Positions 484 to 46,445 of a stretch of DNA of 64,000 nucleotides are shown here, piece by piece. The position numbers and the translations under genes are program-made. Source of the DNA: a virus (Duplodnaviria; Caudoviricetes); the IMG/VR virus record IMGVR_UViG_3300029705_000041; one strand, 5' to 3'. The notes beneath the pieces are model-generated. The model saw only the letters and a program-made list of their open reading frames with translations, was not told where the DNA came from and ran no database searches. How positions within the stretch are numbered: position 1 is the first letter of the stretch; each line of letters begins with the position of its first letter.

Positions 484-512
484 TTGAAAAAAGAGGGTTG
501 CTGTGGTATAAT
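484..512 (+). promoter_or_regulatory. Sigma-A promoter of the integrase
   Basis: TTGAAA(484-489), 17 bp, TATAAT(507-512), with extended TG. Confidence 0.75.
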
Positions 513-517
513 AATAC

Positions 518-551
518 TATTAGCGACCTTCTTTCTATTTTAGAAAGGAGG
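518..551 (+). promoter_or_regulatory. 5' UTR hairpin sequestering the integrase Shine-Dalgarno sequence, with an unpaired 5' toehold
   Basis: CCTTCTTTCTA(527-537) pairs with TAGAAAGGAGG(541-551): 11 bp including one G-U. Confidence 0.7.
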
Positions 552-557
552 AACACA

Positions 558-2063
558 ATGGATGCAATATATGGTAGACAGTCTATAGACAAGAAAGACA
601 GTATTAGTATTGAATCGCAAATTGAATTTTGTAAATATGAAACAAGAGGGAGGGAATACCGAGTCTACACGGATAAGGGCTATAGTGGTAAAAACACGGA
701 TAGACCTCAATTCCAAGAGTTATTGCAAGACATTAAAAATGGTGAAATTCATAGAGTAATTGTTTACAAATTAGACCGTATAAGCCGTTCAATATTAGAC
801 TTTGCAAGTATGATGCAAATATTTGAGCAGTACGGAGTCGAGTTTGTTTCGTCCACCGAAAAATTTGATACCTCAACTCCAATGGGTAGAGCAATGTTAA
901 ATATATGTGTGGTATTCGCACAGTTGGAAAGAGAAACAATCCAAAAGCGTGTTCTTGACTCTTATAATGCACGAAAGAAAAAAGGTTTTTATATGGGCGG
1001 CAAAATTCCATATGGTTTTTCAAAAGAAAAAATTGTAATCAATGGCATTAGAACATCTAAGTATATAATCAATCCGGAAGAAATGGAACAGGTAATTACT
1101 ATATATGAAATGTATTCTAATCCAACAACTTCTATGAGAGATATAATTGGTTATTTTAATGAAAATGGAATAAAGCAACTACGTGGCGGAAAATGGAGAG
1201 CTACAAATTTATTATCTCTTGTTAAAAACCCAATATATGTTCAAGCTGATTTAGATATATACGAATTTTTCAAAAGTCAAGGTGTTGAAATTATTAATCC
1301 ACCTTCAGAGTTCATTGGAACAAATGGCTGTTATCTATATAAAGGTGAAAATGCCGAAGCGGATAAATCTGTTAGATTAGAAGGACATACATTAGTATTA
1401 GCTCCGCATGGCGGCACAATACCATCTGAAACATGGTTAAAGGTTCGGAGAAAATGTTTGAATGACAATAAAATATTGAAACCAAACAAAGCTAAAAACA
1501 CATGGCTATCCGGAAAGCTGAAATGCAAAAAATGTGGATATGCGATACTATCAAGAGGTTCTACTAAAGGAGAAAAGTTTAGATACTTGTTCTGCCAATT
1601 CAGCAAAAATGATAATGGTTGTGAAGGCATACATTGTATGAAAACAAGCGACATGGAAGATGCAATTCTCAATGAGATAAAAGAAAAGTTGAGTAATTTT
1701 AAAACTCTTTCAAGAGAACAAAGTGCAGCCATTAATCCTAAAATCAATGAATTAAGAATCAAAGAAAAAGACATTGATAATGAAATAGAATCATTGATGG
1801 AAAAGCTGGTAGATGCAAATGACACTTTATTAAAATATATTAATAAAAGAATTGTGGAACTGGACAATGCGAAAAAACAAATTCTATCTGACTTAAATAC
1901 TCTAACACTATCACAGAACAATATAACAAATAGCAAAACCATTGTAGACCATGTTGACAAATGGGATAAACTTTCTTTTGACGATAAAAGAAGCGTAGTG
2001 GATGCTTTGATAGATAAGATAATGGTTAGTGATGAAAGTGTGGAGATAAATTGGAAGATATAG
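558..2063 (+). CDS. Large serine recombinase (phage integrase)
   Basis: AIYGRQS catalytic Ser, D.GYSGKNTDRP, VYKLDRISRS, recombinase domain, CxxC zinc ribbon, coiled coil; start ATG558 follows AGGAGG. Confidence 0.95.
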   Translation: MDAIYGRQSIDKKDSISIESQIEFCKYETRGREYRVYTDKGYSGKNTDRPQFQELLQDIKNGEIHRVIVYKLDRISRSILDFASMMQIFEQYGVEFVSSTEKFDTSTPMGRAMLNICVVFAQLERETIQKRVLDSYNARKKKGFYMGGKIPYGFSKEKIVINGIRTSKYIINPEEMEQVITIYEMYSNPTTSMRDIIGYFNENGIKQLRGGKWRATNLLSLVKNPIYVQADLDIYEFFKSQGVEIINPPSEFIGTNGCYLYKGENAEADKSVRLEGHTLVLAPHGGTIPSETWLKVRRKCLNDNKILKPNKAKNTWLSGKLKCKKCGYAILSRGSTKGEKFRYLFCQFSKNDNGCEGIHCMKTSDMEDAILNEIKEKLSNFKTLSREQSAAINPKINELRIKEKDIDNEIESLMEKLVDANDTLLKYINKRIVELDNAKKQILSDLNTLTLSQNNITNSKTIVDHVDKWDKLSFDDKRSVVDALIDKIMVSDESVEINWKI

Positions 2064-2064
2064 T

Positions 2065-2114
2065 TTGTGGCACATTGACTACATCGTTCAATCATTATAG
2101 TCAATGTACCATAA
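2065..2114. other. Candidate attP site of the serine integrase
   Basis: 17-bp imperfect inverted repeat (TTGTGGCACATTGACTA / TAGTCAATGTACCATAA, 15/17) around a 16-bp spacer; 50 bp in total, immediately after the integrase stop. Confidence 0.7.
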
Positions 2115-2116
2115 GC

Positions 2117-2134
2117 GAAAGAAGGTCGCTAATA
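2117..2134 (+). promoter_or_regulatory. 18-nt element perfectly complementary to integrase 5' UTR 518-535
   Basis: GAAAGAAGGTCGCTAATA is the reverse complement of TATTAGCGACCTTCTTTC. Confidence 0.65.
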
Positions 2135-2214
2135 AGCCATTTGGCAAGGCTTTTATATACTTATTTTAATTTATAAATTGACTATTTTGTAGCTTAAAAT
2201 AAATATATAAACGC

Positions 2215-2259
2215 AAAAAATTAAGGTTATAAGCTTTTAAACTTATAACCTCATTTTTT
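2215..2259. terminator. Bidirectional intrinsic terminator between convergent integrase and lysis genes
   Basis: AGGTTATAAG / CTTATAACCT stem flanked by A-run and T-run. Confidence 0.65.
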
Positions 2260-4495: not shown

Positions 4496-5233
4496 TTAAT
4501 TTTCAGAATTCAATAATGTAACCAATACCTCTGATTGATATTTTTCGGGTATTTCACAACCATATACAATAGCACTAATAGTATTAATACTTCTCAAAGA
4601 TGAAATATATAATTTCAATGAATTGTAGTATGTTGTATGATATGCAATGTGATTCTTTGCCTCTGTTATAATAATTAAAATATCTTCTACCGAATAGTAT
4701 TTACATGGCTCATTGTCTGCATGATATGGAATAGAAGTTTCTCCAGCAGAAACCATAGCTGAAAGTGTAGTTAAATTCAACTGGTCTTGTGTTGTAAGTG
4801 AAAAATGATAAGTCTCTCCATCAGATAAAACAACATCAATTCCATTCTCTATGGTTGACCTACAAGTGCTTTTCATTTCTTTTATTTTAGCATCTTTAAT
4901 AAATGCTACTGTCATTTCTTCCGGAACTTCTTCTGTTGTGTTGTCAATAGGTTCTTCCGCTTCAATTTCTATTTTTTCGTTTGTTTCAAAAGCTGCTACA
5001 AGAGCATTATATTCTTCTTCGTCAATAGAAACTATGTCGGCGGCAACAAATTCAGTTGGGGCAGCAAATTGTAACATCCAATCCGCACGATAAATAACTC
5101 CATTGCATATAATAGCTTCGGCAGAGGATTCGGATGCAAGCAAATACATCTTATGTAATAATTGATAACGAATTAAATCATCAGATGTTGCAACACCCAA
5201 AATAGTATTATCATTTACTATTTTATAATACAT
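4496..5233 (-). CDS. Phage tail-associated protein (DUF4376-like C-terminus)
   Basis: KIKEMK..C...IENGIDV...HFSLT..DQLNL...YHAD...C..YS pattern typical of phage tail accessory proteins. Confidence 0.6.
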   Translation of the reverse strand: MYYKIVNDNTILGVATSDDLIRYQLLHKMYLLASESSAEAIICNGVIYRADWMLQFAAPTEFVAADIVSIDEEEYNALVAAFETNEKIEIEAEEPIDNTTEEVPEEMTVAFIKDAKIKEMKSTCRSTIENGIDVVLSDGETYHFSLTTQDQLNLTTLSAMVSAGETSIPYHADNEPCKYYSVEDILIIITEAKNHIAYHTTYYNSLKLYISSLRSINTISAIVYGCEIPEKYQSEVLVTLLNSEN

Positions 5234-6461
5234 TAATCAAACCTCCTCGCATATTAACTAATCTATATCCCATTAGTCTGTTTATATATTTACACATACT
5301 TTGTAATGTTTTTCTGTGTTTTACATATTTAAGGTGTGATAACCAAGATTGAAAAGAAGCATACATTTCTTCAATGGTGCGAACTCCATTTTTTATAAAG
5401 TTTATAAATTTCTTAATTTTTCTTCTCATTCTCACAATTCCTTTTCGTACAGGTCTGCGTATGATATTTCCATCTTTTGTGATGTTATATTTTGTTTTTA
5501 AGAATTTAAAACCACGTGAAGCCTTGACAATGTGTGTTTTCTTTGTATTAAACTTTAAGCCGAGTTTTTCAACAATTTCACACATACCAGCATATAGTTC
5601 TTTTAGAAACTCCTTATCATCTGATATAATAACACCATCATCCATATATCTTATATAGTGTTTTACACTCATTTTGTCTTTTATGTAATGGTCAAGGTCA
5701 TTAGGAACTATCAAAGCCATCATTTGAGAAATTTGACTTCCGAGACAAATTCCGACATCTTCTCCGTTTTTATAATAAGACTTAATTATCTTCATTATAA
5801 TATCATTTAAGCCATTGTTAGATATATACTTATCCAACACATATCTACAAGAAGAATGAGGAATACTATCAAAGAATGATTTAAAATCAAATGTTAGTAT
5901 ATAAAAATCTGTACCATATTCCCGAATTGCAGATTTTAAATGCGAATACATTCTTCTCCTTGCAAAATCAATTCCCTTATCCTTGGTACTTGCACCATTA
6001 TCATAAATTAAATTGTCTTTTGCCGAAGGAACTATTGCATTATCACATAAAACACGTTGTATAATTCTATCTTCGATTGTTATCGGAACGATAATCCTTT
6101 CTTTTCCTCTTTCATATAAAGATATTCTACTCGTATTTACAAGTTTAGGTAATTCTCCGTTTTCAATAACCTTAACTGTTGTGTACATATTTTGAATGGC
6201 ATATCTATTATATTTTTGAACGCTTCCTTTCCACATTACACTCTTATTACATTTATTTAATGCATCAACGAAATTTTGCATTTTAAAAATATTGTCAACA
6301 TTATATTTTTCAGCCTTTAGCTTTCGTTTCTCTAATTTTTTTGCTTTATCTCTGGCTATTCGAGCCTGTATTCTTTCTCTGTTATTTATGGTAATATCCA
6401 CCTCTGTTGTATATAAGTTAAATATAATATTCTCCGAATGGTTTATTTTATATATAGTCAT
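5223..6461 (-). CDS. DGR reverse transcriptase
   Basis: GKER.I, DRIIQR, DFKSFFDSIPH, GICLGSQISQ, YIRYMDD; adjacent TR and Avd; no maturase or endonuclease domain; start may be ATA at 6389. Confidence 0.95.
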   Translation of the reverse strand: MTIYKINHSENIIFNLYTTEVDITINNRERIQARIARDKAKKLEKRKLKAEKYNVDNIFKMQNFVDALNKCNKSVMWKGSVQKYNRYAIQNMYTTVKVIENGELPKLVNTSRISLYERGKERIIVPITIEDRIIQRVLCDNAIVPSAKDNLIYDNGASTKDKGIDFARRRMYSHLKSAIREYGTDFYILTFDFKSFFDSIPHSSCRYVLDKYISNNGLNDIIMKIIKSYYKNGEDVGICLGSQISQMMALIVPNDLDHYIKDKMSVKHYIRYMDDGVIISDDKEFLKELYAGMCEIVEKLGLKFNTKKTHIVKASRGFKFLKTKYNITKDGNIIRRPVRKGIVRMRRKIKKFINFIKNGVRTIEEMYASFQSWLSHLKYVKHRKTLQSMCKYINRLMGYRLVNMRGGLINVL

Positions 6462-6479
6462 TCAACCATGTGATTATGG

Positions 6480-6677
6480 GTATGAAAATTAAACTGACTA
6501 TCAAGTTTAATCCATGCAAGTAGCTTCAACCCAGCTTCATCGGACTGCTATTATAGCAGGACAATCTTAAAGCAGAAAGTCGCAATATTTACCCTTTCGG
6601 GAAGGACAAACACTCCTTCAAGTGATGTTGTTGAATATTCATTTTTCACCCTCATTTTGTGGTTACTGTCATCAAAT
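6480..6677 (-). ncRNA. Structured DGR spacer RNA between TR and RT
   Basis: Hairpins GAAGGA..TCCTTC (6601-6619), CCC-GAAA-GGG (6592-6601), ATTAAACT..AGTTTAAT (6488-6511). Confidence 0.5.
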
Positions 6678-6804
6678 GAATCAGGGGCAAACGCCATTAG
6701 CATTGCTGGCGTTGTTGTTGTTGTTGTTACCTGTGTTGTTGACATTGTAGAAGTTAGTCGTGTTGGTAGCATTCGGAGAACGCTCCCACCAGTTGTACGC
6801 ACGA
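6678..6804 (-). repeat. DGR template repeat (TR)
   Basis: 127-nt AAC-rich copy of the VR; all substitutions versus the VR fall at TR adenines (minus strand). Confidence 0.95.
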
Positions 6805-6847
6805 CAACACGATGGAAAATCAGTATTTGCCCTATAAATTTATATTT

Positions 6848-7642
6848 TTATTTTAATTCTTTAAATCGTTTAGCATCGCTTTGTTGCAATGCACGTAATT
6901 TCTTTATTTCTTTTGTAAGCATATCAGACCATTCAATCATAATACGCTCACTATATTGCATAATATTGAAATATGTCAGCATCGGTCTATTTGCCTGTTC
7001 AAGCCTTTGTATAGCAGTAGATATACATTTTCTCCGCCTCATATATTCATCATGTGTTTCCGGTATTTTTCGATTTGCTTTTACAACTTGGTATAAGGCA
7101 TCATCCATTAAATTAATTAGCATGGCAGAAGAAGTATATTTCAAACTATTACTGCCATGCATAACCTTTGTATGTGTGTATCTATTTAACTTTACCATAT
7201 TACTCATAAACTCTGCCCGATTGATATAATCCCAATTTAATACCAAAAATGATTTATGAGGATGCTTTTTATCTTCCGGTAAAAGACCATTCAATAGTGC
7301 TTCTTCATTTTCTATCATATCCGCTATTCTCCTTATCTTTTTACTTTCAACTCCCTCAATAATTTGATATATCATTAATGGCTTTTCAAATTCAGATAAA
7401 GTATCTATCGCAGAAGATATTAAATCATATTTTTCATCAAGTTTACCTTTAAAATATCCGTAAGATATTTGTGAAATATTATCAAACATCTTATTCATAA
7501 CATCACATATAGGTTTTGCAATATATTCCTGTTTTCTTTTAGGAACTCTTTTCATACGAGTAGCAAGTTCCTTGTAAATTAAATTAAATGTATTATCATA
7601 TTCATATGATGATTGATTTCGTAAAGCCTTAACTACTGACAT
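6848..7642 (-). CDS. avd: DGR accessory protein with two tandem Avd-like domains
   Basis: Lies between VR and TR; MSVVKALR..S..E..PKR N-terminal unit and a second unit AEF...KANRKIP...RR..I..A...W..M...EIK.L.A...SD.KR; about twice normal Avd length. Confidence 0.75.
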   Translation of the reverse strand: MSVVKALRNQSSYEYDNTFNLIYKELATRMKRVPKRKQEYIAKPICDVMNKMFDNISQISYGYFKGKLDEKYDLISSAIDTLSEFEKPLMIYQIIEGVESKKIRRIADMIENEEALLNGLLPEDKKHPHKSFLVLNWDYINRAEFMSNMVKLNRYTHTKVMHGSNSLKYTSSAMLINLMDDALYQVVKANRKIPETHDEYMRRRKCISTAIQRLEQANRPMLTYFNIMQYSERIMIEWSDMLTKEIKKLRALQQSDAKRFKELK

Positions 7643-7673
7643 ATTTCCTCCTTTGAGTTCAGTTTAAGATATA

Positions 7674-7694
7674 AGGGCGGTGGCAAGCCGCCCT
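7674..7694. promoter_or_regulatory. GC-rich hairpin downstream of the VR/IMH (DGR homing element)
   Basis: AGGGCGG-TGGCAAG-CCGCCCT, ~22 nt after the target stop codon. Confidence 0.7.
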
Positions 7695-7716
7695 ATGATA
7701 AATAAGTATAAGTCGC

Positions 7717-10700
7717 TTACGCTCCGATAGAGAAGCAGGGGCAAACGCCACCAGCATAGCTGGCGCCGTAGTAGCTGCCGTTGCCACCTGTGCTGCCGAC
7801 ACTGCAGAAGGTAGTCGCGCCGGTAGCAACCGGAGAACGCTCCCACCAGCTGTACGCACGAATCCATAAACCACCGTCATCAGCTTCAATAAAATAAGTT
7901 TCATCGGCAGTATGATTATATAGCTCACGTGTTTCTGCATCCTCATATATATAAACAGCAGTATTGTTCTTCCATACATCTCCAGATTTAACTGTAAATA
8001 ATGTAGTTGGGTCTGATACAGATACTGTTGCTCCTGCCGTTGCGGTTGCGGCATAGTATGTCGCATCTTCCGGAACGATTCTGCCTATGAATTTTGCTCT
8101 AAATATATCAGAGTTTGCAACCAATGTGTTGCCGTACAAACCTTCTCTTACGTAAGGTTCGCCGCTGCCGCCAACTTCTCGCAATGATGGTAAATAAATA
8201 TAATCATCATCTGAACGAACTGGTGTGCTTGCGCTGTTTCCTGCTGCATTACCAACATTGGCGTAAGTCTTAACTCTCTTAATTAATGACCTTAATTGAA
8301 CAGGTAAACCACGATAAAAACGACCCATTTCACCAGCGTACTTTTCACTTGTTCCAACAGTATAAGTATCTTTAGAACAATCACTGTGTTCTGGATTCAA
8401 GAATTTTCTCATTTGAGTATCATGCCAACCAGAATATGTGTAATATCCATCTCCGGCACTTCCACCAGAAGTAGAGTAGTTATAATTACCAACATTCATT
8501 CTATGTGTATGCATAAGCAGTCCTTCAAACATAAAAGATACGGATGATGTTTTAAGAGCATTATCGGATAATGCATATCTTCCTGTGACATCGCCATCAG
8601 AAGAAGCAACCCTAATAACAACATTTTCAGTAGTCCAATCACAAATACTCCTTGCAACTGAATCACCAAGGTCATCAAACCATATTTTACACTTATGAAT
8701 AAATCCTTTTCCGAAAGCACCAAATCCAGAACTTGATTCTGCGCCACCAATTACAAGTTTTCCAGCACCAATACTTGAATTTGTTAATGTTGAAATTGTT
8801 TTACTGTCAGTAAAAGCAACAGGGGCATTAGTCGAAGGTGTTGTTGCAAGGTTAAATGAATATGTATATAGTTTATCTTCGCCCTTAATATGACGAATTA
8901 CTAACATATTTCTGTTTTTAGCATTTCCAACAATATTATAGGCGCTTCCAAAGTCAAGCCTATGACCACCGCTGTATTGTAGCCTCAAAGGAATGCTATT
9001 ATTAGTTGTATCAGATACAGATAAGAGAGTAGAAGTTAAACTTGTTGCTGTATATTCATAATCTAAACATAATGTAAATGATTTATCTTTATCTCCGAAC
9101 AATTCAACAACATTTCCATCTCCATCGGTTACTTCATATGCTGTAAATCCATCGAAATAAGTTGACTCCGAAATAATATCAATTTCTTCAACATTACTAA
9201 ACGAATAATCGTTACCCATTCTGAATGTTTTTCTGTCTCCACCTTTAATATAATTGTTTATAGAAAGAGGATAGCCAGCACAAATTCGATATATATCAGT
9301 CCATGAGGCATTATTTAGATATTCTGTATCTGAATCATCTCTAGTAACAGGAGCATTAGAAACTAAATCCCAAAGAGCAGTTACTGTCATATCACTAGTT
9401 ACATAGCCAGTAGACTTATTCCAGCCTTTGAATAAATAGAATCTCAATGAACTCTCAACAGCAGTATATGTTGGAATTCCATCTGCTGAAGGCATAAAAT
9501 CCCATACTGCTTCCGAACCATAAGATACGGTTTGTGTTTTAAGAGTTGTACCAAATCCATCAACCCATGTTACTGTAAATTCTCTTTCGACAGCAGTGTA
9601 CTGTGCTTTATAAGTAATTGTGTGACCTACATTTGTGGCAAAGTTGGTTGCACTTTCAGGATAGGTAACATCACTTGATACATCTTTCCAATTTTTAAAT
9701 GTATAGATATATCTTTCATCCATTGGTTTTACAGGTGTTGTATAATCGTCAAAATAATTTTTAGGATTGACAACGGTGCCGCCGGCATCTACCCATTCTG
9801 TAAATAAAATAGTTATTTCATCATCATCTATAAACTTAATTTCATGCTGTTCAATGTAAGTGTTATATGCAATTGTAAGGTCGTTACCCCAAATATCTAA
9901 ATATTCAATCTCTTTTGATTGTTTTAGTGTTGGAATAAATACATATCCTGTAAATACAGATTTAGACTGATTATATCCATTAGCATTATAACCAGCAAGA
10001 AGTTTTATATCATCAAGTATAGATGCAGTATCATTGTCGAGAATCCAATACATATTAGTTAATCTGATACGTTCAATATTATCGCACGCTTGATATAAAG
10101 CTAAAGCGTTAATACACGCCATATCAGAAGAAGCATTTAAAGATGCCTGATATGTATTGTCCATATTTTCTACAATTAACTGTTTAAGATTTGTATTACC
10201 TTCAAAAGTAAGAGTATCACTAACATCTTCTTTGCCATAGTAAAGTTTTGTTAAATTCTTTGCTATTAATGCCCCTATATCATTTAGCTCGGCTTTTTCA
10301 ACCATTCCACCAGTTGCAAACGTTATACCCGAACATTGTGTTCCTGTTGTATAAACTTCTTTTAACGCTTGGCAGTTTGAAAGGTCAAGCGCAGAATTAA
10401 ACGAAGCGCAATTACGTAAATCAAGAATTTCTAATAAAGTATTCGCAGAAACATCTATACCATTACCAGCCTCAGAACTACCAAATGAAGTATTAATATA
10501 ATCCTCATCAGCCGAACCAACATATAATTCTGTAAGTTTAGTAGCAGGAGAGAAGTTAGCATATCCTATATGTAATGAAGCTAGACCATTAATTTTTTGA
10601 ATAAGTGAAGCACTAAAAATATAAGTTTCTGTATCATTAAGAGTAAGATGAGTTAAATCAACTACAACCTTTTCACCTCTCATAGCTCTTTGTGTAATTC

Positions 10701-13700
10701 TTGTTGAACCAGCTTGAACAGCGACATAGACAGAAGCATAAGGAATGATTTCAAGTACACCACCTGAATATGAACGAACTGTAATAGCCGCAGAACTTCC
10801 TGTTGCAGCACTACCATTATATTTAGATGAACAATACAACTCTTGGTATGTTTCAAATAATGTTCTTTGTAATTCTTTCAAGCCATACATCATTGCAAAA
10901 TATGCAGAGTTTGAAGTATATCCACCTAATGTATTTGGATTTTCATAAGGTCTGATATATTTTCTTCTTGCATCAAACATTTGTAAGCGTCTACATTTAA
11001 CACTTTGATATGCTTTAAATTTATTGATAATACGAGTGGAATCCCAGGCACCCTTAGATTCGAGAGTTTTAAATAATGCTGCCAAATCATCGTACATATT
11101 TTCTCTGACATTCGCCCATAAAGTACAAGAATCAGCATCGCCAATGATAGATGCACCATTATATACATTACCATCGCCAATCTTATCAATATCTTCCATA
11201 CCAAAAGTCAAAGTAAGATTACCTTCATTATTATTTCCATCCGCCGTATCGTTATCATAGTCAAAAACTAAATCCCAATGAATACCATCAGATGTATGCC
11301 AGAAAGTATTTTTAGCTCGGTTATCAACCATAGTATGTCTTTCAGTAAACAAATAATGATAAAGAATACTATCCTTAATCATATATTCTTCAAATTCATT
11401 AACAAACTTAGCTTGTCTATATTCTGCACTATCTACAGTATAAGTAGTTTCACCATATGTTACAGATTCTTCGAGTGTCGCATTTGTTGCAGCTGCTGTA
11501 TCAGTAGAAGCAATAAATGTGTAAAGTCTTTTGAAACTGTCAATAAGACTCGTTTTATGCTCATCCTCTGTCCACACTTTACCATTCTTGTCGGTTAAGC
11601 CAAAATCTTCTGGGTATCTAAATTCAACGGAGTTATGCCAACCAACTTCCATTTGTGCATCAGTTGCATCACCCCAACCTTCCCAATTGAAAATTGTGTC
11701 ATAATCTGCAAGACCATTTGCCTTAAACGATGTTCCATCGTGCTTAAACAAACAAATTCTGTCAGTATTATTTGCAATTTCAACAATACATTCGTTAGGA
11801 TTTGTTTTGTCCATACCCATAGCAGCATGGTTTTTCTTTGAGTTACCAAAGTCACCACAAGAATAGAAGTGATAGTTGGTATCAGCAAACTCCTTATGTG
11901 TACTAATATCAGGATTTGACTCTCTAACAAAGATTACACAAGGATGGAATTCCATAGTGTCTCTAACTTTACTATTAGCCAATCTTGCTGCTCTTATGTA
12001 AGGTTGGAATGTATTGTAATCATCTGCAAGACACGCATTATTTGCATTTTCAGATGAAGCAACATTAACTTTGATATTAAAATAATTAACACCAATAGAA
12101 TTTTCTGTCATTGAATATGTATCAGAAGTTTTGCCATCATTAAATACAAAACCATTTGAACACTTAATATCCAAATTTCTCGAAGATGCGCCATACTGTT
12201 CGGATGAAGTACCTTGTCCTTTTAAAGTTATGCCTGATGCAGTCCAAGTGTGTGCTGCACCTCCAGCTGGATATATATGCTGAACCGAACAATCATATAA
12301 TACATTGCCTTCGCTATCTTTTAATGCTGTAACAGAATCTTTTTTACCTGTTGTAAACCTTGGACAGTCGATAAGGATAACTCTCATATCAGGAAGAATT
12401 GCATTTATCTTAGTGTAATCTAATTCGCCATCATCATTTAAAATATTATTCTTGTTATATCTGTCAGCCATTTCTGTTGCATCAGGAGCATCAGCAATAT
12501 AGTTTGCAATAAGGTCTGTGTCAGACAAATGAGTTCTATATGCCTTTAATCTATAAATCCACACATCACAGTTATCAGAACCAAAAATAATAGGTGCTTG
12601 TGTTGACTGCATAAATGCATCTGTCGCACTGTAAAGTTTAGGCTGAGTATAATCACCATCAAGCAAACAGAATATTTCAGAGAATCCACCTGAATTTTCG
12701 TCAGGTGTAATATTCCACTCAAATTCCATATATGTATCATCACAATACGGTACTTTTACTTTTTCTGCTGCCGAACCAGTACGTAAATAAGCATTAGTTG
12801 CTGTCATTTTCATACCGATGTTTCCGGACATACAAGACATTACCTCTGCCTCTAAATCTCTACAGTTGGTTGCTTTATAAATAAGTTTAAAATTCATACC
12901 AGTCTGCTTAATATCATCATCGCCAATAGGGAAGAACAAAGGATAATTAAGTGACATTGTAGTACCGGCTTTAACGCAGAAATAAGAATTTCCATCTTTA
13001 TCTGTTTTCCAACCACCATTAGTCCAGTCAAAATTATCTGATACACTCATTGTATATCCATTATTAGTATAGGTTGCAAAGTTGGTATCACTATTGCTTC
13101 TTCCAGAAGGATTAAAGTCAAATGCTTTACCAGAAACTTCATTTATATCATACGGAAATTTATTAATAGTTATAGGAATTTCTTTTGTTGTAGCGCCACA
13201 AGTAAAGACTATAACTTTATTCCCATAACTAGTTGGTTTGTAAGCCCAAGACTGTGCTGTTCTATCCACACTAACTGTTGTTGAACTATCAAGCGTTCTA
13301 ATTTCCTCACTGACACTATAAACAGAAATATTAACATTCGCTGTTTGTGAGGCGGGATTATAAACAAAATAATCCAATGTTAAAGCAGAATATTGTTCTC
13401 CATTATCGCCATTATAAGCACAACCAATTACTGGCGCTGTTTCTTCTGAATCTATATACATAATATCAAAATATAATATATCAGAAGTGATTGGAATTTC
13501 GTTGACTGTTGCAGTACAATATACCCTTAAAGAATGAGAACCGTGTCCTAAATCTTCTTTTGGAATAATAAGCGATTGAGCAACACCACTTGAAGTGTAT
13601 GCCTTTGAAAAATAAGGCTCATCCTCATTATCAAGATAAATATATACCGTTTTTTCAATGCCAGAGCCATTAGGTGTAAATCTAAATGTTACATCAGAAG

Positions 13701-15027
13701 AATATGTAAGTTTATCATCGAATGTAGAACTAATATACATATTGATTGCTCTTACAACCCATGTGGTAGTACCAATAGAACCATTACTATCTGTGATTTT
13801 TAATCTTACATTATTCGACCCACTGCTTAAAAATTTTCCGATATTAAAGCTGCAATTTCCTTGTGCTATGGTTTCAGTAGCAACTTTAATATTTGATACA
13901 TACCAATCGGCGGTACAGTCACCAGTAGCATCGCCAGTTGTATCAAGTGATGAAAAACTATACGATAACTCACAATCATCTCCAAGTAACATAGTTACTG
14001 GTGTTCTTGTGATTTTTTCAATAGTAACCGTTGAACCAGTTGCAACACCGCCGCCTCCAGCAGGTAAAGTAACTTGGTCTTGAATATTACCATCGCAATA
14101 TAATGTTAATACATTAGTTTCTTGGTCAAGTCTAATCATATATTCATGACCATCATTCATACTATTTAAGGTATCTTGAATATCACTAATATTATTTCCA
14201 TTTGTCTCAACATCTGTAAGTAAATTAGTGATACTGATATTCATATTGTTTACATTTCTTTGTAATTCTTCTATATCTGATTTTATATTAATAGTATCTC
14301 CGATATTTATCCAAATTTCTTCATCTTCATTTGAAATGTATCTGTAATGACTATAAACTCCATTAAATAAAATATAGTAATCAGTAAAAGAATTTGCGGT
14401 TATTGTATTTAAAAAGCTATCTATTGACTCACTATCACTTCCATTTAAAAATTGAGCAGTAGAACCGCCTACCATACAAAATTGACCGCCAATATATTTA
14501 TAATATAAACAACCATCAGAATTATGTACAATATAATCAACATCTTCTGAAGGTTGTACAATTTCAGTTAAAGCTCCGACAACTATTGTTGTAGCCGAGC
14601 CGAAAACATCCCATTTATATGCAATATTATCTTCATCATCAGAATATTTAATCCATACATATTTATCATATCCATTGCCCGCTTTATTAGGGACAAGATA
14701 GAATGTTGATACAGAAGGGCTTTCTACATTAGGGTATCCTTCAGCAGTTAAAGAATCTACAATTTCCCAACTTACTGCCTCATATGTTGAAAGTCTGCCA
14801 TCCGAATATTCTTTTGCTCTTGCAAATCCGGTTTCTGCACCAGCCTCAATAACTGCCGAAAGTGCATTTTTAAGATTGGAATATGTTTTATCATTGACAA
14901 TTCTTGCAGCAGAAATTTCAGAATTTATATTTCCAATCGAAGTATTTAAGTCCTCTTTAACTCCATCAGCATATTTTTTTGTAGCATAACTTTCTAAATC
15001 AGAGCTTAAAATGATTTTCTCTTTCAT
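7717..15027 (-). CDS. Giant tail/receptor-binding protein, DGR target with C-terminal C-type-lectin-like domain
   Basis: 2436 aa; beta-rich Ig/LamG-like stretches, CotH-kinase-like motifs, LRR-like stretch, InlB-B-type repeats (YTFKNW, YLFKGW), IYLPS..EV...WWERSP...GVCPCF C-terminus. Confidence 0.85.
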   Translation of the reverse strand: MKEKIILSSDLESYATKKYADGVKEDLNTSIGNINSEISAARIVNDKTYSNLKNALSAVIEAGAETGFARAKEYSDGRLSTYEAVSWEIVDSLTAEGYPNVESPSVSTFYLVPNKAGNGYDKYVWIKYSDDEDNIAYKWDVFGSATTIVVGALTEIVQPSEDVDYIVHNSDGCLYYKYIGGQFCMVGGSTAQFLNGSDSESIDSFLNTITANSFTDYYILFNGVYSHYRYISNEDEEIWINIGDTINIKSDIEELQRNVNNMNISITNLLTDVETNGNNISDIQDTLNSMNDGHEYMIRLDQETNVLTLYCDGNIQDQVTLPAGGGGVATGSTVTIEKITRTPVTMLLGDDCELSYSFSSLDTTGDATGDCTADWYVSNIKVATETIAQGNCSFNIGKFLSSGSNNVRLKITDSNGSIGTTTWVVRAINMYISSTFDDKLTYSSDVTFRFTPNGSGIEKTVYIYLDNEDEPYFSKAYTSSGVAQSLIIPKEDLGHGSHSLRVYCTATVNEIPITSDILYFDIMYIDSEETAPVIGCAYNGDNGEQYSALTLDYFVYNPASQTANVNISVYSVSEEIRTLDSSTTVSVDRTAQSWAYKPTSYGNKVIVFTCGATTKEIPITINKFPYDINEVSGKAFDFNPSGRSNSDTNFATYTNNGYTMSVSDNFDWTNGGWKTDKDGNSYFCVKAGTTMSLNYPLFFPIGDDDIKQTGMNFKLIYKATNCRDLEAEVMSCMSGNIGMKMTATNAYLRTGSAAEKVKVPYCDDTYMEFEWNITPDENSGGFSEIFCLLDGDYTQPKLYSATDAFMQSTQAPIIFGSDNCDVWIYRLKAYRTHLSDTDLIANYIADAPDATEMADRYNKNNILNDDGELDYTKINAILPDMRVILIDCPRFTTGKKDSVTALKDSEGNVLYDCSVQHIYPAGGAAHTWTASGITLKGQGTSSEQYGASSRNLDIKCSNGFVFNDGKTSDTYSMTENSIGVNYFNIKVNVASSENANNACLADDYNTFQPYIRAARLANSKVRDTMEFHPCVIFVRESNPDISTHKEFADTNYHFYSCGDFGNSKKNHAAMGMDKTNPNECIVEIANNTDRICLFKHDGTSFKANGLADYDTIFNWEGWGDATDAQMEVGWHNSVEFRYPEDFGLTDKNGKVWTEDEHKTSLIDSFKRLYTFIASTDTAAATNATLEESVTYGETTYTVDSAEYRQAKFVNEFEEYMIKDSILYHYLFTERHTMVDNRAKNTFWHTSDGIHWDLVFDYDNDTADGNNNEGNLTLTFGMEDIDKIGDGNVYNGASIIGDADSCTLWANVRENMYDDLAALFKTLESKGAWDSTRIINKFKAYQSVKCRRLQMFDARRKYIRPYENPNTLGGYTSNSAYFAMMYGLKELQRTLFETYQELYCSSKYNGSAATGSSAAITVRSYSGGVLEIIPYASVYVAVQAGSTRITQRAMRGEKVVVDLTHLTLNDTETYIFSASLIQKINGLASLHIGYANFSPATKLTELYVGSADEDYINTSFGSSEAGNGIDVSANTLLEILDLRNCASFNSALDLSNCQALKEVYTTGTQCSGITFATGGMVEKAELNDIGALIAKNLTKLYYGKEDVSDTLTFEGNTNLKQLIVENMDNTYQASLNASSDMACINALALYQACDNIERIRLTNMYWILDNDTASILDDIKLLAGYNANGYNQSKSVFTGYVFIPTLKQSKEIEYLDIWGNDLTIAYNTYIEQHEIKFIDDDEITILFTEWVDAGGTVVNPKNYFDDYTTPVKPMDERYIYTFKNWKDVSSDVTYPESATNFATNVGHTITYKAQYTAVEREFTVTWVDGFGTTLKTQTVSYGSEAVWDFMPSADGIPTYTAVESSLRFYLFKGWNKSTGYVTSDMTVTALWDLVSNAPVTRDDSDTEYLNNASWTDIYRICAGYPLSINNYIKGGDRKTFRMGNDYSFSNVEEIDIISESTYFDGFTAYEVTDGDGNVVELFGDKDKSFTLCLDYEYTATSLTSTLLSVSDTTNNSIPLRLQYSGGHRLDFGSAYNIVGNAKNRNMLVIRHIKGEDKLYTYSFNLATTPSTNAPVAFTDSKTISTLTNSSIGAGKLVIGGAESSSGFGAFGKGFIHKCKIWFDDLGDSVARSICDWTTENVVIRVASSDGDVTGRYALSDNALKTSSVSFMFEGLLMHTHRMNVGNYNYSTSGGSAGDGYYTYSGWHDTQMRKFLNPEHSDCSKDTYTVGTSEKYAGEMGRFYRGLPVQLRSLIKRVKTYANVGNAAGNSASTPVRSDDDYIYLPSLREVGGSGEPYVREGLYGNTLVANSDIFRAKFIGRIVPEDATYYAATATAGATVSVSDPTTLFTVKSGDVWKNNTAVYIYEDAETRELYNHTADETYFIEADDGGLWIRAYSWWERSPVATGATTFCSVGSTGGNGSYYGASYAGGVCPCFSIGA
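7732..7861 (-). repeat. DGR variable repeat (VR)
   Basis: Encodes RAYSWWERSP...GGVCPCF at the target C-terminus; matches TR except at adenines plus one extra codon. Confidence 0.95.
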
Positions 15028-45524: not shown

Positions 45525-46404
45525 CTTTTACAAAGAATTCATAATCTCTATCCTTTGTACCATGCATTAAATTCCGTAATGGTCTTAATAAAAATCTATC
45601 TAAATATTCGCCTAAATCATCGTGGTCTTTATACAACTGTTTGTTTTTATAGTATTCTGCCGGAGTATATTTTTCAATTGTTTCAGCATTTACTCCAATT
45701 GTAAATTCCTCATCAATATTAGCTTCACGAACAGTTTTTAATCCAGCTGTTGTAAATGATTTTCTATAAGTTTCTGTAAGCTTATTATAATCATCAACTC
45801 GTCCTTCTCGCACAGCTTTCATTTGCTGCATCTTTGTATAACATAAATCTGTAATGAATATTTCAGCATTACTATCACATTGTGGATTGGCACTCTTTAA
45901 GAATTTATAATGAGAATTTAAAACATCATAGTCTATAGCTGATAATCCGCCGCCCCAAGTATCAATATCTTTTGGGTCAATTTGAGGTTCATCACTATCC
46001 TCATCAGTTTCTTTAAGTGGAGTAGTTTTTTCTCCTGTAAAAAAGAAGCCTTCTTCTAAAGACGTATCGAAAGTACGTCCTTTATACTGTGCCATGTTTA
46101 ATTTCTTTATATAATTTCCGACTATAGCATTGTCATTGCCATTATCACATGAATTAAAAATAGACTCATTATAATATAAATCATAAGCCATACATATACG
46201 TTGCATAGCCTTTTTTGTACTGTGATATTCAAGTGCATATTCGTTGAATTTTCTATTCAAACACTTTTTACATATAGGCAAATGATTTGTTCTAGCATAG
46301 AAACTACTATAACTTTTATAAAATTCTGATAATGAATCGAAAGGTTCATCACATTGGCAGCAATTATACCTTAATGCATTATCAGTTGAATTGCTCTTAG
46401 GCAT
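45487..46404 (-). CDS. Putative terminase small subunit with N-terminal Zn finger
   Basis: CxxC..FYKS..PICKKC; overlaps the terminase start (YonG-like synteny). Confidence 0.6.
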   Translation of the reverse strand: MPKSNSTDNALRYNCCQCDEPFDSLSEFYKSYSSFYARTNHLPICKKCLNRKFNEYALEYHSTKKAMQRICMAYDLYYNESIFNSCDNGNDNAIVGNYIKKLNMAQYKGRTFDTSLEEGFFFTGEKTTPLKETDEDSDEPQIDPKDIDTWGGGLSAIDYDVLNSHYKFLKSANPQCDSNAEIFITDLCYTKMQQMKAVREGRVDDYNKLTETYRKSFTTAGLKTVREANIDEEFTIGVNAETIEKYTPAEYYKNKQLYKDHDDLGEYLDRFLLRPLRNLMHGTKDRDYEFFVKDEGDSNEYDDEE

Positions 46405-46445
46405 AAGCTACCTTCTTTCTCAACTAATATTATAATATCAACTAT

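Follow-up and report, generated by a model that had tools for sequence, protein, structure and literature searches.

A putative cis-acting RNA switch coupling integrase translation to the integration state of a temperate phage

Here, we propose that the 5' leader of an integrase mRNA and an 18-nt element located beyond the phage attachment site attP (the 3' element) probably act together as a cis-acting RNA switch, which would report whether the phage genome is free or integrated. The locus lies in a 64,000-nucleotide stretch of DNA (the window, from whose first letter all positions are counted) from IMG/VR virus record IMGVR_UViG_3300029705_000041 (Duplodnaviria; Caudoviricetes), and encodes a large serine integrase. 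The proposal builds on the sequence features of the locus, on their conservation and co-variation among related integrase alleles and on the separation of the two parts by integration, complemented with folding models. A first, sequence-only reading of the window had put forward the same interpretation, which is supported by the present sequence and modelling analysis and withstood each refuting test named by that reading that can be made in silico.

In the proposed mechanism the integrase mRNA would begin near position 518. Its first 9 nt would stay single-stranded and the following 11 nt would fold onto the Shine-Dalgarno (SD) sequence, giving low translation by default. In the free genome, where attP is intact, the integrase transcript would continue across attP into the 3' element, which would bind the leader and the anti-SD arm of the hairpin in an 18–24-bp helix that is stronger than the hairpin itself. 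The anti-SD arm would thereby be displaced and the SD freed; the 5' end of the mRNA would also be paired, which is expected to be protective in Firmicutes. Integration cuts between the stop codon and the 3' element, so that the prophage mRNA would end in host sequence, lack the element and be held in the low-translation form. The ends of the transcript, the pairing in vivo and activation as its outcome are what we infer from the sequences and the models. Such a switch would serve a phage well if much integrase is required in a short burst upon entry and little of it thereafter. The timing of integrase synthesis in temperate phages with serine integrases is poorly known, because the direction of recombination is usually ascribed to the directionality factor alone.

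The leader hairpin and its distant complement

The integrase gene is preceded by a predicted sigma-70-type promoter on the plus strand (484–512), consisting of a -35 hexamer TTGAAA (484–489), a 17-nt spacer and an extended -10 element TG-n-TATAAT (504–512, with the -10 hexamer at 507–512). The promoter matches 11 of 12 consensus positions in addition to the TG, is the top-scoring promoter-like site of 250–2450 in a consensus scan, and keeps its hexamers and spacing in integrase alleles at 54–100% identity. From the usual promoter spacing, transcription is predicted to start near 518–519, in agreement with the promoter and start near 518 given by the sequence-only reading. The TTG at 498, with which a program-made open reading frame (ORF) begins, was rejected as the integrase start in favor of the ATG at 558.

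The predicted mRNA opens with a leader, or toehold (518–526, plus strand), that is complementary to 2126–2134 and is unpaired in the predicted fold. Directly behind it lies a hairpin of 11 bp, including one G–U pair, with a 3-nt loop: the anti-SD arm occupies 527–537 and the SD arm 541–551 (both plus strand), and the latter contains GGAGG 6 nt before the ATG at 558, so that the SD is covered in the predicted fold. The fold of 518–600 has a minimum free energy of -18.1 kcal/mol (z = -3.3 compared with shuffles). The hairpin that had been described as burying the SD while leaving 518–526 free is thus recovered by prediction, and the other alleles likewise have a single-stranded stretch 5' of a hairpin that holds the SD. 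Alleles with identities as low as 54% retain the SD hairpin, with compensatory pairs, and compensatory changes between the anti-SD arm and the SD arm are found in contigs L134, L314, and L326. By this comparison, the SD hairpin is older and more widespread than the long-range complement.

The 3' element, or trigger (2117–2134, plus strand), is made of 9 SD-like nt followed by another 9 nt, and is the exact complement of 518–535: its first half (2117–2125) is complementary to 527–535 of the anti-SD arm and its second half to the leader. Inverted-repeat and complement searches both returned this exact 18-nt inverted repeat, confirming the earlier observation. The expected number of matches in the window is 0.06 when 3 mismatches are allowed in the complement search, and the sole other match (46402–46419) is the ribosome-binding site of another gene, which shows the 3' element to be SD-like. 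A chance repeat was rejected as the origin of the complement. A role of the 3' element as the ribosome-binding site of a small ORF was also rejected, as no suitably spaced start codon follows 2125. In the window the element begins 2 nt past the attP inverted repeat and 54 nt after the integrase stop codon; across four integrase alleles it begins 48–53 nt after the stop codon. It is complementary to the leader and the anti-SD arm and never to the SD arm, as would be expected if it were an activator.

Would the transcript reach the 3' element? The sole predicted terminator-like sites in 250–2450, on both strands, coincide in a bidirectional intrinsic terminator (2222–2253), which separates the integrase gene from the lysis operon that converges on it and lies downstream of the 3' element. 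No terminator is predicted between the integrase stop codon and 2117, which in silico answers the objection that the transcript might end too early. The element indeed lies past the attP center and before the terminator, as had been noted; the terminator stem itself spans 2222–2253 and not the 2215–2259 that had been given for it. Among 12 distinct 3' sequences of allele A, the allele of the window, positions 2117–2148 are invariant and variation occurs at 2082, 2095, 2115–2116, and beyond 2150. The dinucleotide 2115–2116, which borders the complement, is polymorphic in allele-A phages (GC, GT, or AT), the C2116 of the window being a minority form; it could form a short local stem with 2126–2129 if G–U pairing is tolerated.

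All folding predictions are equilibrium models, in which the full-length mRNA was folded for allele A and the 5' fragment was cofolded with the 3' untranslated region (UTR) for all four alleles. In the full free-form mRNA (518–2265), the long-range pairs have probabilities of 0.87–1.0 and the hairpin of at most 0.02, and the SD is unpaired with a probability of 0.55. When the mRNA is cut before 2117, the long-range pairs are absent, the hairpin reaches 0.77–1.0 and the SD is unpaired with a probability of 0.002; the prophage transcript of a lysogen contig (L129) gives a similar picture, with long-range pairs absent, hairpin probabilities of 0.76–0.98 and an SD unpaired probability of 0.011. 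Cofolding changes the SD unpaired probability from 0.004–0.14 to 0.79–0.94 in each of the four alleles, at a free-energy difference (ddG) of -12 to -19 kcal/mol, and the duplex amounts to -29 to -34 kcal/mol compared with -10 to -13 kcal/mol for the hairpin. The exchange of hairpin for long-range helix, postulated by the sequence-only reading, is therefore predicted in 4/4 alleles: in the models, an element that matches both the single-stranded stretch and the ascending arm outcompetes the hairpin.

Separation by integration and comparison of alleles

The integrase (501 amino acids; 558–2063, plus strand) combines resolvase catalytic, recombinase and zinc-ribbon domains (Pfam Resolvase, Recombinase, and Zn_ribbon_recom; E-values 1e-37, 1e-12, and 1e-6, respectively), all those expected of a serine integrase. 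Its stop codon is followed by attP (2065–2114), an imperfect inverted repeat of approximately 50 bp with 17-nt arms (2065–2081 and 2098–2114) around a 16-nt center, and hybrid junctions in two lysogen contigs, L129 and L317, mark it as a serine integrase attachment site. Because of the contigs that share the integrase and because of the gene neighborhood, we read 2065–2114 as an intact attP and the window as the free form of the phage, a large temperate phage with a genome of roughly 130–160 kb.

The two lysogen junctions locate the crossover. Contig L129 matches the window without a difference as far as 2090 and from there on carries host genes for alpha-amylase, a sigma factor, and histidine biosynthesis, and contig L317 (349 kb) leads from host DNA through the P' arm and the 18-mer into the lysis genes, being identical to allele-A phages from approximately 2079–2084. 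These sequences place the crossover within 2079–2090, at or near the symmetry center 2089/2090 and at least 27 nt before the 3' element. The arm motif in the B arm of L317 is 5 bp closer to the center than in the P arm, as is expected for the sites of serine integrases. Integrated forms are also found for the 76% allele (L332, L335, and L337) and for the 66% allele (L327), all of which diverge inside the att site and have lost the 3' element. With a crossover at or before 2090, and so upstream of 2117, the 3' element is split off from the integrase gene by integration in the three alleles A, B, and D, as the sequence-only reading had anticipated; the element lies beyond the crossover and the integrated forms of these alleles lack it, as in a sib-type arrangement.

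Two contigs show further particularities around the att site. The junction at approximately 3120–3170 of contig L325 matches the phage only from 2091, and L129 matches it only to 2090, which leaves no common crossover dinucleotide; one of the two may reflect an off-site integration or else be chimeric. In L038 (positions 1–600), a contig of the IMG/VR provirus L001, approximately three tandem units of approximately 185 bp follow an allele-B integrase. The attP P-arm word is found at the start of each unit, and the array is interrupted by a gap of N. This array is either an assembly problem at the att junction or a genuine repeat array.

Four integrase alleles from free-phage contigs of this phage group were compared, with identities given as amino-acid identities to the window. 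Allele A (100%; the window and L123–L132) forms a perfect long-range helix of 18 bp. The helix comprises 22 bp with one bulged C in allele B (76%; L330, L331, L333, L334, L336, and L338), 24 bp with one bulged U in allele C (70%; L133), and 22 positions with one A–C mismatch and one terminal G–U in allele D (66%; L326, L328, and L329). The starting point of the helix in the leader is identical in all four alleles (position 518 of the window) and lies within the stretch predicted to be unpaired; from there the helix continues through the anti-SD arm, with its partner directly after attP. The integrase gene and attP between the two copies have diverged to 54–92% identity per 50-nt window, and both copies are unchanged in alleles A, B, and C, which have a common core of 16–18 nt and cross-compatible elements.

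Allele D provides the clearest signs of co-evolution. Compared with allele A, it carries a compensatory A–U to G–C double change in the leader helix, and a one-base insertion is mirrored in its anti-SD arm, its SD arm, and its 3' element. The D leader reaches -30.3 kcal/mol with its own element compared with -15.4 to -21.7 kcal/mol with those of the three other alleles. Alleles B and C differ in one pair of the helix extension, in which both bases have changed. Complementarity is thus retained in homologs, including compensatory changes in the 66% allele, and the single-base bulges between the copies are more readily reconciled with an RNA helix than with a binding site for a protein.

More distant relatives were searched as well. 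Integrases that are 54–57% identical, on contigs from Oscillospiraceae and other Clostridia (L002, L043, L057, L070, L382, and L384), have retained the same promoter and a hairpin that blocks the SD, together with a leader word resembling that of the window; these copies all appear to be integrated. Variant leaders occur in L134 (70%), L135 (64%), L310–313 (61%), and L382/L384 (56–57%), on contigs that are integrated or cut off. Among relatives at 47–55% identity from IMG/VR and GTDB genomes, no cognate 5'–3' helix rises above background (best cognate score 31; non-cognate mean 22.6 and 99th percentile 35.5), which says little because most of these relatives appear to be integrated. The GenBank phages CP51, TPELB_ph1, and phiCp-A, with integrases of approximately 30% identity, have no such helix, and scans of IMG/VR and JGI metagenomes for the 16–18-mer and the related leader motif returned chance matches only, besides the L001 contig.

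Several points weigh against the proposed switch. Most of the comparative signal is conservation, because alleles A, B, and C share the 16–18-nt core, and clear co-evolution comes from lineage D and one B/C pair only. The B leader pairs slightly better with the element of A than with its own, and the helix of allele D carries an A–C mismatch. The relatives at 54–61% identity keep the hairpin, but are found as integrated copies only. In addition, the promoter -10, the leader, the integrase gene, attP, and the 3' element together form an exchangeable cassette (497–2145): the window and L123 are identical only within 497–2145, and L123 and L133 have flanks of approximately 90% identity and differ by approximately 30% inside. 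As the two copies sit at the ends of this cassette, their conservation could partly reflect recombination history. A contact over 1.6 kb must also compete with ribosomes and local folding, and a locked-off prophage must leak or be opened otherwise, because excision also needs integrase.

Competing explanations and genomic context

What else could account for a conserved complement that straddles attP? The 5'–3' helix, with its two helical turns of duplex, could instead direct processing or decay, being cleaved by RNase III or marking the mRNA in some other way, and so lower integrase in the free genome and spare it in the prophage, as lambda sib does. Helices of 18–24 bp approach the size of RNase III substrates, the location past attP mirrors that of sib, and in Staphylococcus aureus the 5'–3' pairing of icaR recruits RNase III (PMC3868564). 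We nevertheless regard a decay signal as unlikely. The SD is already buried by default, and a further negative effect in the free genome would leave no well-expressed state, though it is then that integration needs integrase; moreover, the 3' element pairs with the anti-SD arm instead of the SD, and cleavage within the duplex would itself take away the anti-SD arm. Unlike lambda with its PI and tI, the locus has one predicted promoter and one terminator, so that no transcript short enough to avoid the element is expected.

Less probable again is that the copies act as DNA, either as paired sites for a regulator or directionality factor or as anchors for homologous exchange of the integrase–attP cassette. 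The copies do lie at both ends of a mosaic cassette (497 and 2145), one overlapping the predicted start site and the other abutting attP, and in KplE1 the sites of a directionality factor control the integrase promoter (PMC2951348). However, asymmetric sequences of 18–24 bp with single-base insertions between the copies, as in alleles B and C, fit recognition by a protein poorly, and the extensions particular to each allele track the arm and loop of the hairpin in that allele's mRNA. Exchange anchors, for their part, do not need inverted orientation. It also counts against DNA sites that the directionality factors of serine integrases are known to bind the integrase and not DNA.

In our view it is very improbable that a separate, trans-acting small RNA carries the 3' element and is made from a promoter that spans the attP center and is split by integration. 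By eye, a -35-like word is present in the P arm (2075–2080) and a -10-like word in the P' arm (2096–2101), and allele C has a comparable pair of hexamers; yet the spacer between them is just 15 nt, the consensus scan gives no site spanning attP, and no clear terminator follows the 3' element. The words also belong to the att inverted repeat and are thus perhaps meaningless. Finally, inversion of the integrase cassette by a Hin/Gin-type system, which would uncouple the gene from its promoter, is suggested by the perfect inverted repeats that flank a recombinase gene with the promoter just outside the left repeat, but it is scarcely credible and was rejected, as the cassette has the same orientation relative to both flanks in all of approximately 35 contigs from many different samples, and the repeats are unlike the att arms of the integrase itself and co-vary with the SD hairpin.

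The integrase protein is 100% identical on the 24 contigs read, the longest of 164 kb, and is listed in 44 collection blocks. Upstream of the integrase lie genes for NrdD, NrdG, a dUTPase, and a formate/nitrite transporter, followed by a 47-amino-acid ORF; from downstream, a lysis module, a diversity-generating retroelement (DGR), and structural genes converge on the integrase. The 47-amino-acid ORF (311–454) adjoins the integrase promoter, belongs to no known family, and is seen in most of the allele A and D contigs read, whereas backbones of the B and C type have a 48-amino-acid version. The ORF may encode a small regulator or a directionality factor. The formate/nitrite transporter gene (2–292, with its upstream part in L124–L131) lies between those for the dUTPase and the integrase; the L123/L133 backbone lacks it.

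Beside the lysis module, the DGR occupies 5223–15027, with a reverse transcriptase gene (5223–6461, minus strand), an RT-2 RNA (6413–6680, minus strand; Rfam match, E = 8.5e-9), an Avd-like gene (6848–7642), and a target protein of 2436 amino acids (7717–15027). No Rfam family matched in positions 1–2500 of the window.

Relation to known regulatory systems

Full-text literature searches found no description of a leader and 3' element arranged in this way and split by integration, in keeping with the expectation of the sequence-only reading. We rate the arrangement as a variant that combines known principles, namely those of lambda sib, of icaR, and of anti-antisense activation. The likeness to lambda sib is that a cis-acting RNA element lies downstream of the integrase gene and beyond the attP crossover, such that integration strips it from the transcript and expression is tied to the recombination state. 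However, in lambda a local 3' hairpin, sib, is the target of RNase III and reduces Int as long as the genome is free, whereas the predicted partner of the 3' element is not a local arm but the 5' leader at a distance of 1.6 kb, and the modeled geometry predicts release of the SD and thus an effect of opposite sign. The locus described here also has a serine instead of a tyrosine recombinase, and a single predicted promoter–terminator pair.

The activating geometry itself is familiar from DsrA/RprA and rpoS, from RNAIII and hla, and from synthetic toehold switches, all of which rely on separate RNAs in trans. In common with these systems, the integrase mRNA is predicted to have a hairpin-locked SD, a single-stranded stretch 5' of the stem, and an activator complementary to this stretch and the ascending arm. 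Here, in contrast, the transcript's own 3' UTR is the predicted activator, and site-specific recombination determines whether it is present.

In Firmicutes, it is likewise known that the 3' UTR of an mRNA can pair with the 5' UTR of that mRNA where translation is initiated. The 3' UTR of S. aureus icaR carries an anti-SD motif that blocks the SD and brings in RNase III (PMC3868564), and a contact between 5' and 3' UTR has been described for hbs of B. subtilis (PMC5737220). In the integrase mRNA, the 3' motif is SD-like and would pair with the anti-SD arm and the leader, unlike that of icaR, which pairs with the SD itself; neither icaR nor hbs is tied to a DNA rearrangement.

Phages that sense their own integration through the position of attP are exemplified by mycobacteriophages such as BPs, in which immunity depends on integration because integration removes a C-terminal degradation tag from the repressor (PMC3694055). 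There, too, the position of attP makes integration alter a phage gene product, but the change is at the protein level, depends on a tyrosine integrase, and involves no RNA pairing. Integrase expression is also tied to the att region in KplE1 intS, where IntS and TorI bind DNA sites that overlap the promoter (PMC2951348); this control, however, is transcriptional.

If the proposed switch operates as outlined, it would give the phage a simple memory of its own state and would widen retroregulation from decay, as in lambda, to translational activation. It would also be a clear bacterial case of activating 5'–3' UTR pairing over 1.6 kb, for which the natural variants are ready compensatory mutants, and compact integrase/attP cassettes that shut down their own expression after integration could be useful for genome engineering.

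In conclusion, we lean toward viewing the locus as a natural, self-contained RNA device, in which one mRNA would read the topology of its own genome: its 3' UTR would serve as a cis trigger that enters the leader from the 5' end and opens the SD-blocking hairpin, and integration would delete this trigger. With four naturally co-evolved leader–trigger pairs on four integrase/att specificities, such a device would mirror lambda sib with a positive sign and would be the natural equivalent of the synthetic toehold switch.

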